This document shows, piece after piece, positions 37,611-39,580 of a stretch of DNA of 64,000 nt. A program made the translations under genes and the position numbers. The DNA comes from Escherichia phage vB_EcoP_CU10EC: the sequence record PQ435408.1; one strand, written 5' to 3'. Numbering within the stretch: position 1 is the stretch's first letter; every line of letters begins with the position of its first letter. Under the pieces are notes generated by a model. It was given only the letters and a program-made list of their open reading frames with translations. It did no database searches and was not told the DNA's origin.

Positions 37611-39398
37611 TTAGTTACCTTTCAGTTTATTTAGACGATTACGGTAGAGGGACTTAAACCCAGGAATATCCTCTGGATTTTTCTTAAGGTGTTTGACCAA
37701 ACTACCTAAGTCCAGATTTTGAAGGATGTCACCAGCACCCCAGCTATACTGGAATAATCCTTTGTACTGATTAAGTATCTCAAAGTATTTATGATTACGT
37801 GGGCTGGTCATTTGTATATAAGGTAATAAGTCCTCCTTTGACTTAATGTAACCCATTTCAATGAGCTTCTCTTCTTTACTCCGATGATTTCTTAAGAAAT
37901 CATACGCCCATTCATACTCTGGTTTAAAAATCAGATTCTGTAATGGTTTGAATGTTAGACCAAGAATATCTAGGATTTCCCAATACTCTCTGTCATCCAG
38001 ACCTACGTATTCCAGAATACCAATACGGTGTTCAGTAACATACTTCTTGAATCCCTTACTGGTAATGACAGGCATCAGTTCTCTAAAACGAACATCATCA
38101 ATGTGAATAGCACCACGTCGTTTAGCTTTGTTAGCTTCGATTTGATTTCGACAGACAACAGTCTCTGCTTTCATCTCATCAGATAGCTCATACCATTTCC
38201 ACATGGTTCCAATCCGGGCAATTACTGGACTACCAGAATCAACTTGATTGGCTAGTACGTAGTACTTAGGTTGTTCCACTTCAACAAAACCATATTTCTC
38301 ATGGCGACTTGGGTCAGCAAATTCCTTCTGAATATACGGTTTAGATACCAAATCACCACTTTTATCTCGTACAGGGGTAGTACCAAGAACTGCATTCAAT
38401 GAAACCAATGCATTAGTTTTACCACCTGCTTTGGTTTTATTGGCAGCTATCGTCTTAGCACGTTTCTCAGCAGCTATCTTAGCCTGTTCTCTGCGGAAGT
38501 TAGTTGGCTTGTCCCACTCATTATATTGAGTAAGGTCAATTACCCGATAACCCATAGCAGTGAACTTAGCTACAGCTTTTTCTGCTTCACCCTTCTTAGG
38601 ACCAACCACATGAACAAAAGCCGTACGCTCCAGGTCACCTCGGTTGTATTCAGGGAAGTATGAGAAGGAGTCTGCACAGTCAGATAAACGTCGTGTAACT
38701 ACAACGTTCTTGGTGGTGAATATACCAATACTCTGGTGGGAGTTATGGTAAATTCTAAAGTAGTCAGTAAGTTTACCTTTTACCAGGTCTACAGAATTAC
38801 CTTGGTTCATTATGTAACCAGACCACTTATTACCAGTAGCTTTTAAAGCAGCAAGCTGAGGTAAGTGCAGATGACGATATACAAATTCCTGGAATGAGTA
38901 ATATGTACTATCCTCACGAGTATCCTTAAGAGCACGCATAGCCTTACCGCATAGCTTCTTAAGACCTGCATACTCAGGACGAGCTAATAATGCTTTATTG
39001 GATAAGTTACGCCAGTGCTTGATGTAATGCTTACGTTGCTTGGCCCATAAGCTGGAGGACATGTAGCGTTGAACAATTCTGTCTGTAACAGCACCCAGGA
39101 ATGATGGATATTCCCAGAAACGGGTAGAGGATTCAGAGGCATATTCCTCAATCTGTTTAATAGCTTCAGGAATCTTAGCCTTAATCTCTTTCTCCATACG
39201 GTCTACTAAATCTACGCATAGAGTAGTAATACCATCATCAGTTAACTTCTGGTTAGACAGTGTTTCTCGACTAGGAGCAATAGCTAAGGTGTCTGGTGCA
39301 GCCTGAACTACTAAATTAAAAGCACCAATAATATTCATGAAGTTGAGGATAAGCCCTACAGCCTCTTCACTAGCCGGGCTAGATACTATTGGGTACAT
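37611..39398 (-). CDS. rIIA-like protein, C-terminal portion (split by 155-bp duplication)
   Basis: First 48 residues are identical to the last in-frame residues of the upstream ORF; split coincides with the tandem duplication. Confidence 0.45.
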   Translation of the reverse strand: MYPIVSSPASEEAVGLILNFMNIIGAFNLVVQAAPDTLAIAPSRETLSNQKLTDDGITTLCVDLVDRMEKEIKAKIPEAIKQIEEYASESSTRFWEYPSFLGAVTDRIVQRYMSSSLWAKQRKHYIKHWRNLSNKALLARPEYAGLKKLCGKAMRALKDTREDSTYYSFQEFVYRHLHLPQLAALKATGNKWSGYIMNQGNSVDLVKGKLTDYFRIYHNSHQSIGIFTTKNVVVTRRLSDCADSFSYFPEYNRGDLERTAFVHVVGPKKGEAEKAVAKFTAMGYRVIDLTQYNEWDKPTNFRREQAKIAAEKRAKTIAANKTKAGGKTNALVSLNAVLGTTPVRDKSGDLVSKPYIQKEFADPSRHEKYGFVEVEQPKYYVLANQVDSGSPVIARIGTMWKWYELSDEMKAETVVCRNQIEANKAKRRGAIHIDDVRFRELMPVITSKGFKKYVTEHRIGILEYVGLDDREYWEILDILGLTFKPLQNLIFKPEYEWAYDFLRNHRSKEEKLIEMGYIKSKEDLLPYIQMTSPRNHKYFEILNQYKGLFQYSWGAGDILQNLDLGSLVKHLKKNPEDIPGFKSLYRNRLNKLKGN

Positions 39399-39580
39399 TA
39401 CGTTACCGTAGCGAACGTATATGTTCTAGGAGCAATAGCTAAGGTGTCTGGTGCAGCCTGAACTACTAAATTAAAAGCACCAATAATATTCATGAAGTTG
39501 AGAATAAGCCCTACAGCCTCTTCACTAGCCGGGCTAGATACTATTGGGTACATTACGTTACCGTAGCGAACGTATATGTT
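39271..39580. repeat. Tandem duplication, 155 bp x 2, one SNP
   Basis: Exact duplicate except GAGGAT/GAGAAT at unit position ~82; 155 is not a multiple of 3, creating the frameshift. Confidence 0.9.

Follow-up and report, generated by a model that had tools for sequence, protein, structure and literature searches.

False duplications in which alternative haplotypes are kept side by side in one scaffold have been described as "heterotype" duplications (Ko et al. 2022, Genome Biol 23:205, PMC9516828). They are recognised by variant-specific k-mers, by halved depth and by gaps between the copies (PMC9516828). In phage genomes assembled with SPAdes, two related faults are on record: artificial terminal overlaps as long as the final k, and mistakes where direct terminal repeats occur (Philipson et al. 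2018, Viruses 10:188, PMC5923482).

The locus described here lies in the window, which is the whole stretch of 64,000 nucleotides of Escherichia phage vB_EcoP_CU10EC (PQ435408.1) that was analysed. Here, as in the heterotype duplications (PMC9516828), two variants of one locus stand in series and a gene is apparently changed. Of the diagnostics listed for that class, variant-specific sequence is present at the locus, while gaps and N runs are found elsewhere in the scaffold. The scale is the smallest there can be, a 155-bp bubble with a single SNP in a phage population, as opposed to the kilobase haplotigs of diploids in PMC9516828, and the outcome is false disruption of a gene instead of false gene gain. 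Duplications of length k, which is 77 here, recall the SPAdes phage assemblies and are seen at 20755-20908 and in the flanks of an N gap in the terminal repeat; the overlaps in PMC5923482, unlike those of the window, measure 127 bp and lie at contig ends, and internal duplications of 2k+1 are not among the faults described there. Once one copy has been taken out, the window gene resembles the rIIA of Gamaleyavirus (PHROG 2979) and differs from it in nothing notable. The 155-bp duplication is almost certainly a false one made by the assembler and not biology, and the real gene an intact rIIA of 854 aa.

Geometry of the array at 39271-39580

Tandem Repeats Finder (TRF) reports a period of 155 at 39271-39580, with 2.0 copies, 99% matches and zero indels. 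When every base is compared with the one 155 positions further on, 77 matches are followed by a single mismatch (G at 39348, A at 39503) and then by another 77 matches, which puts the mismatch right in the middle of the unit, at offset 78 of 155. Both methods agree with the first-pass annotation, which had been made from the letters and had described two 155-bp copies with one difference near the centre of the unit. The bases directly outside the run of period 155 mismatch on both sides, so that the repeat does not extend further and its boundaries carry no microhomology. The elements of the array are as follows.

39271..39425, unstranded: copy A, 77 bases, G at 39348 and 77 bases; continues the true left flank
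39426..39580, unstranded: copy B, 77 bases, A at 39503 and 77 bases; continues the true right flank
39425..39426, unstranded: junction of copy A and copy B, ...ACGTATATGTT followed by CTAGGAGCAAT..., without microhomology and read as artificial

The junction can also be written as ...GTATATGTT followed by CTAGGAGCA.... The central variant, C/T on the coding strand, occupies a third codon position and is synonymous as had been claimed, since ATT and ATC both encode Ile. A chance origin of the array in 64 kb is ruled out by the repetition of exact 77-mers at a distance of 155. Elsewhere in the window, no exact repeats of at least 31 bases were found beyond this array, two like arrays and the flanks of the N run. 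Long inverted repeats were absent from the window, and the inverted k-mers reported there are the N run only.

The array could be a genuine tandem duplication of 155 bp, produced by replication slippage or unequal recombination, which frameshifted rIIA into parts of 310 and 595 aa and in which one base changed later. It is present in the sequence as given, and classical T4 genetics offers examples of tandem duplication in rII. The geometry speaks strongly the other way. The unit is 2k+1 long, with a k to which other parts of the same scaffold testify independently, and the sole difference between the copies falls on the middle base, a coincidence of 1 in 155 for each array that recurs at 20522 and within 41042-41793. 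Slippage or recombination is also poorly served by boundaries that lack microhomology. Because the length is 2k+1, the difference is central, microhomology is missing and the pattern recurs at three loci, the array is better explained as an artefact than as a mutation, and a genuine duplication is held to be very improbable.

The rIIA gene and its apparent fragments

Since 155 cannot be divided by 3 without remainder, rIIA is seemingly broken into frames of 310 and 595 aa. The open reading frames at 39398..40330 and 37611..39398 are those of the first-pass annotation, and the first of them does end in RTYTFATVT and a stop. The features of the region are listed below.

39398..40330, minus strand: apparent 5' fragment of rIIA, 310 aa, made up of true residues 1-301 and 9 out-of-frame residues (RTYTFATVT, then stop)
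37611..39398, minus strand: apparent 3' fragment of rIIA, 595 aa, starting at an internal Met that is real residue 260
37611..40330, minus strand: real rIIA, 854 aa and 2565 nt, after removal of one 155-bp copy
35564..37606, minus strand: rIIB, immediately downstream of rIIA (phrog_2886 RIIB, E=4.3e-212)

On the minus strand, the 310-aa frame ends in ...AIAPRTYTFATVT and a stop. The 595-aa frame repeats 42 residues of peptide counted from its ATG (MYPIV...AIAP), or 51 counted from the junction; the 48 shared residues given earlier are thus corrected to 42. When either copy is deleted, one frame of 2565 nt and 854 aa is obtained, and the protein is identical whichever copy goes. Re-translation after removal of one copy had been proposed as a check and returns the expected single frame at 37611..40330. 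The predicted intact gene therefore stands, as a single frame that is matched by PHROG 2979 from end to end, and only its length changes, from about 855 to 854 aa. Residues 1-849 of the rebuilt protein align in one stretch with positions 1-845 of the 846 of PHROG 2979 (RIIA lysis inhibitor; E=1.7e-293). In addition, the GHKL ATPase N-terminus that had been read from the translation is recovered as PF13589 HATPase_c_3 at residues 47-157 (36.9 bits, cutoff 25). Judged from its sequence, the gene beneath the array is a Gamaleyavirus rIIA of the ordinary kind; the rII name, which stands for a phenotype in lysis timing and in protection from prophage-encoded exclusion, comes from annotation only. 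Exact look-ups of the 310-aa, 595-aa and rebuilt 854-aa proteins returned zero matches, and so did look-ups of the 310-aa and rIIB genes.

The true start of rIIA at 40330 has GGAG upstream. No Shine-Dalgarno-like motif is present in the 25 nt upstream of the ATG of the 595-aa frame. The stop of the 310-aa frame and this ATG overlap as TAATG (39385-39410, minus strand), an arrangement that looks like translational coupling of two genes and could lead annotators astray. The overlap is judged to be a coincidence of the duplicated frame. It is the one feature of the coding sequence that would favour a genuine duplication, against which the second frame offers no ribosome-binding motif. Were the duplication real in just part of the population, a free-standing 310-aa GHKL fragment and a 595-aa protein could be made by way of TAATG, and the match to k=77 would then be coincidental; we consider this, too, very improbable.

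The same overlap is all that points to a programmed translational frameshift or to an rIIA deliberately split into two subunits. Here, the 42-residue repeat stems from duplication of the DNA and not from a recoding site, all annotated relatives encode one polypeptide, and none of the Rfam families scores as high as its gathering threshold over 37000-42500. The probability of such a mechanism is vanishingly small, and it was rejected on the grounds that duplicated DNA accounts for the repeated peptide and that the second frame has no ribosome-binding site. A structured RNA or recoding element was likewise rejected, as the Rfam search at gathering threshold was empty over this interval.

Evidence on copy number comes from related phages. 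The rIIA region matches 56 phage records at 80-95% identity, nearly all of them Escherichia or Shigella phages of Gamaleyavirus (N4-like; Schitoviridae, Enquatrovirinae). In Mimir124, SP5M and IME11, rIIA is a single annotated CDS without interruption (855, 853 and 854 aa, respectively), and the gene order rIIA-rIIB is common to the three. The rebuilt protein shares 91.3-92.9% of its residues with these, with at most 1 gap on each side, and the alignment across the former junction is colinear and nearly identical. When 39100-39760 was compared with the same three genomes by BLAST, the match split at the copy boundary and the two halves hit overlapping intervals of the subject, which means one copy in each subject. 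A fuzzy search found exactly 1 copy in Mimir124, SP5M, IME11, ECBP1 and a metagenome contig from the ENA (ERZ1034973 NODE-48, 89-92% identical), and in 5/5 of these relatives the single copy has the flank of copy A on its left and that of copy B on its right. Consistent with this, 20 records among the matches listed span the 2741-base query in 2583-2589 bases, that is, in some 152-158 fewer.

Copy A is identical to the unit of Mimir124 and SP5M at 155/155 positions. The G allele is carried by Mimir124, SP5M, IME11 and ECBP1, and the A allele by ERZ1034973 NODE-48. In the five relatives, the end of the unit runs on into ACTACTA or ACTxCTx and never into CTAGGAG. A 22-mer from the unit end matches ECBP1 and IME11 in IMG/VR and ERZ1034973 NODE-48 in the ENA, all of them single-copy. 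A 30-mer across the junction gave 0 hits in IMG/VR, a search of low power in which a 30-mer from the normal right flank also gave 0. A genuine duplication is thus absent from every relative examined, and all the contigs that hold the unit end continue into single-copy flank.

Against Mimir124, dN/dS is 0.077 for rIIA codons 1-301 and 0.146 for codons 302-854. By this measure, the part of rIIA that lies past the apparent frameshift has been under purifying selection as a coding sequence, and such a pattern is compatible with a very recent event. The lack of decay in the downstream part is a further point against a genuine frameshift. The earlier suspicion of an assembly artefact in a probably intact gene is upheld by the geometry, by the restored frame and by the single copy in relatives.

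Further traces of a 77-mer graph and the probable origin of the duplication

The unit length of 2k+1 had been said to be shared with other arrays, and the same geometry, with k=77, is indeed found at 20522 and at 41042-41793. These arrays and the N run are located as follows.

20522-20831: second array of two 155-bp units, the only mismatch (C/A) at offset 78
41042-41793: one segment in four successive variants, 221+221+155+155 bp
57468-57605: run of 138 N, with an identical 77-mer on both sides (57391-57467 = 57606-57682)

In the first of these, the right 77-mer of the unit recurs a third time, untrimmed, at 20832-20908. The region of this array takes up 851 bases in the window and 619 in IME11 (97.7% identical), a difference of 232, or 155+77. 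The stretch 20522-20908 is a second site of false duplication. It sits in a variable region for which Mimir124 gives no alignment, close to genes that carry an anti-CRISPR annotation in that phage.

The units of 221 bp at 41042-41793 are built as 77+1+65+1+77. Edges of this length, 2k+1+66 = 221 bases, are what a de Bruijn graph at k=77 contains when two SNPs are separated by a distance of 66 bases. All four units end in one 77-mer (starting at 41186, 41407, 41562 and 41717), and they share a single location in IME11 and in Mimir124, where the segment is therefore single-copy. One site reads C/T/G/C over the four units. The presence of three different bases at a single site suggests more than two variants, or else systematic sequencing error at high depth. 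The fourth unit differs in its first 20 nt, which adjoin a terminator-like hairpin, AAAAAAAGACCTCCCGGAGGAGGTCTT.

The third trace is the run of N. The common 77-mer on its two sides indicates that the two pieces actually overlap and that the gap is spurious. The gap maps inside the direct terminal repeat of Mimir124 (roughly 403 bp), and the scaffold thus runs through the genome ends. An N run flanked by one 77-mer also marks the window as a scaffold from a graph of k=77. A SPAdes-type run with a final k of 77 is likely, since with 150-base reads the default k values of SPAdes go up to 77.

The array in rIIA would have arisen as follows. The sample would have held two versions of the phage sequence, one base apart in rIIA, contributed either by two co-occurring strains or by a recurrent sequencing error. 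A real strain polymorphism is favoured over recurrent error, given that a synonymous transition separates the two versions and that each allele is also seen among relatives. An isolated SNP shows up in a de Bruijn graph of k-mer vertices as two parallel edges of k+1+k bases. With 77-mer vertices, the bubble would thus have had two branches, both of them edges 155 bases long (77+1+77). It would have been left uncollapsed and its branches written one after the other into the scaffold, which would yield the order L-G-R-L-A-R. We infer that the two branches were joined end to end by the assembler or the scaffolder and that the junction is carried by no real DNA molecule. Standard graph traversal takes a single branch of a bubble, and this counts against the serial placement of both. 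Gene callers would then report rIIA as pieces of 310 and 595 aa, while the real genome would carry the unit once and encode rIIA whole, at 854 aa, with rIIB after it, like other members of Gamaleyavirus.

The duplication may instead have been made after assembly, by a tool or a manual step that concatenated graph edges, unitigs or merged contigs with the branches still uncollapsed. The untrimmed 77-mer overlap at 20832-20908 looks like edges pasted together, and so do the two pieces at 57391-57682 that share a 77-mer and have N between them. From sequence alone, this origin is inseparable from one in the assembler, and the biology would be the same, namely one copy and an intact gene. We regard a post-assembly step as a serious but rather unlikely source, and duplication by the assembler remains our preferred reading.

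The significance of these results is for data quality only, and they hold nothing new on rII biology. Annotated at face value, the record would show a frameshifted or split rIIA, taken either for a pseudogene or for two new proteins, in a coliphage of therapeutic type; the sister arrays, read in the same manner, would add further false repeats. An automatic flag could be raised for two tandem units of 2k+1 bases that differ at the central base only, where k-length duplications, or N gaps with an identical flanking k-mer, occur in the same scaffold.

Divergence of the window phage from its relatives

In the comparison with Mimir124, dS is 0.09 in rIIA codons 1-301 and 0.41 in codons 302-854, and the stretch 39100-39760 is 99-99.7% identical to that phage. 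These values suggest a recombination breakpoint inside or near rIIA, probably of the ordinary mosaic kind. The best matches among 50,697 phage records (24-32N, AN24P2, IME11 and the UE-series) are about 92-93% identical over 25 kb. As the best identity is no higher than this, the window phage may fail to reach the customary 95% threshold for a species in Gamaleyavirus.

The colinear alignment with Mimir124 skips about 500-580 bases of that genome at each of four places, near window positions 29409-29473, 35162-35208, 46026-46031 and 51001-51149. The skipped stretches correspond to free-standing HNH endonuclease genes of Mimir124 (27980-28477, 21725-22204, 10848-11324 and 6030-6536), and on this alignment the window phage seems to be without those four homing-endonuclease insertions.
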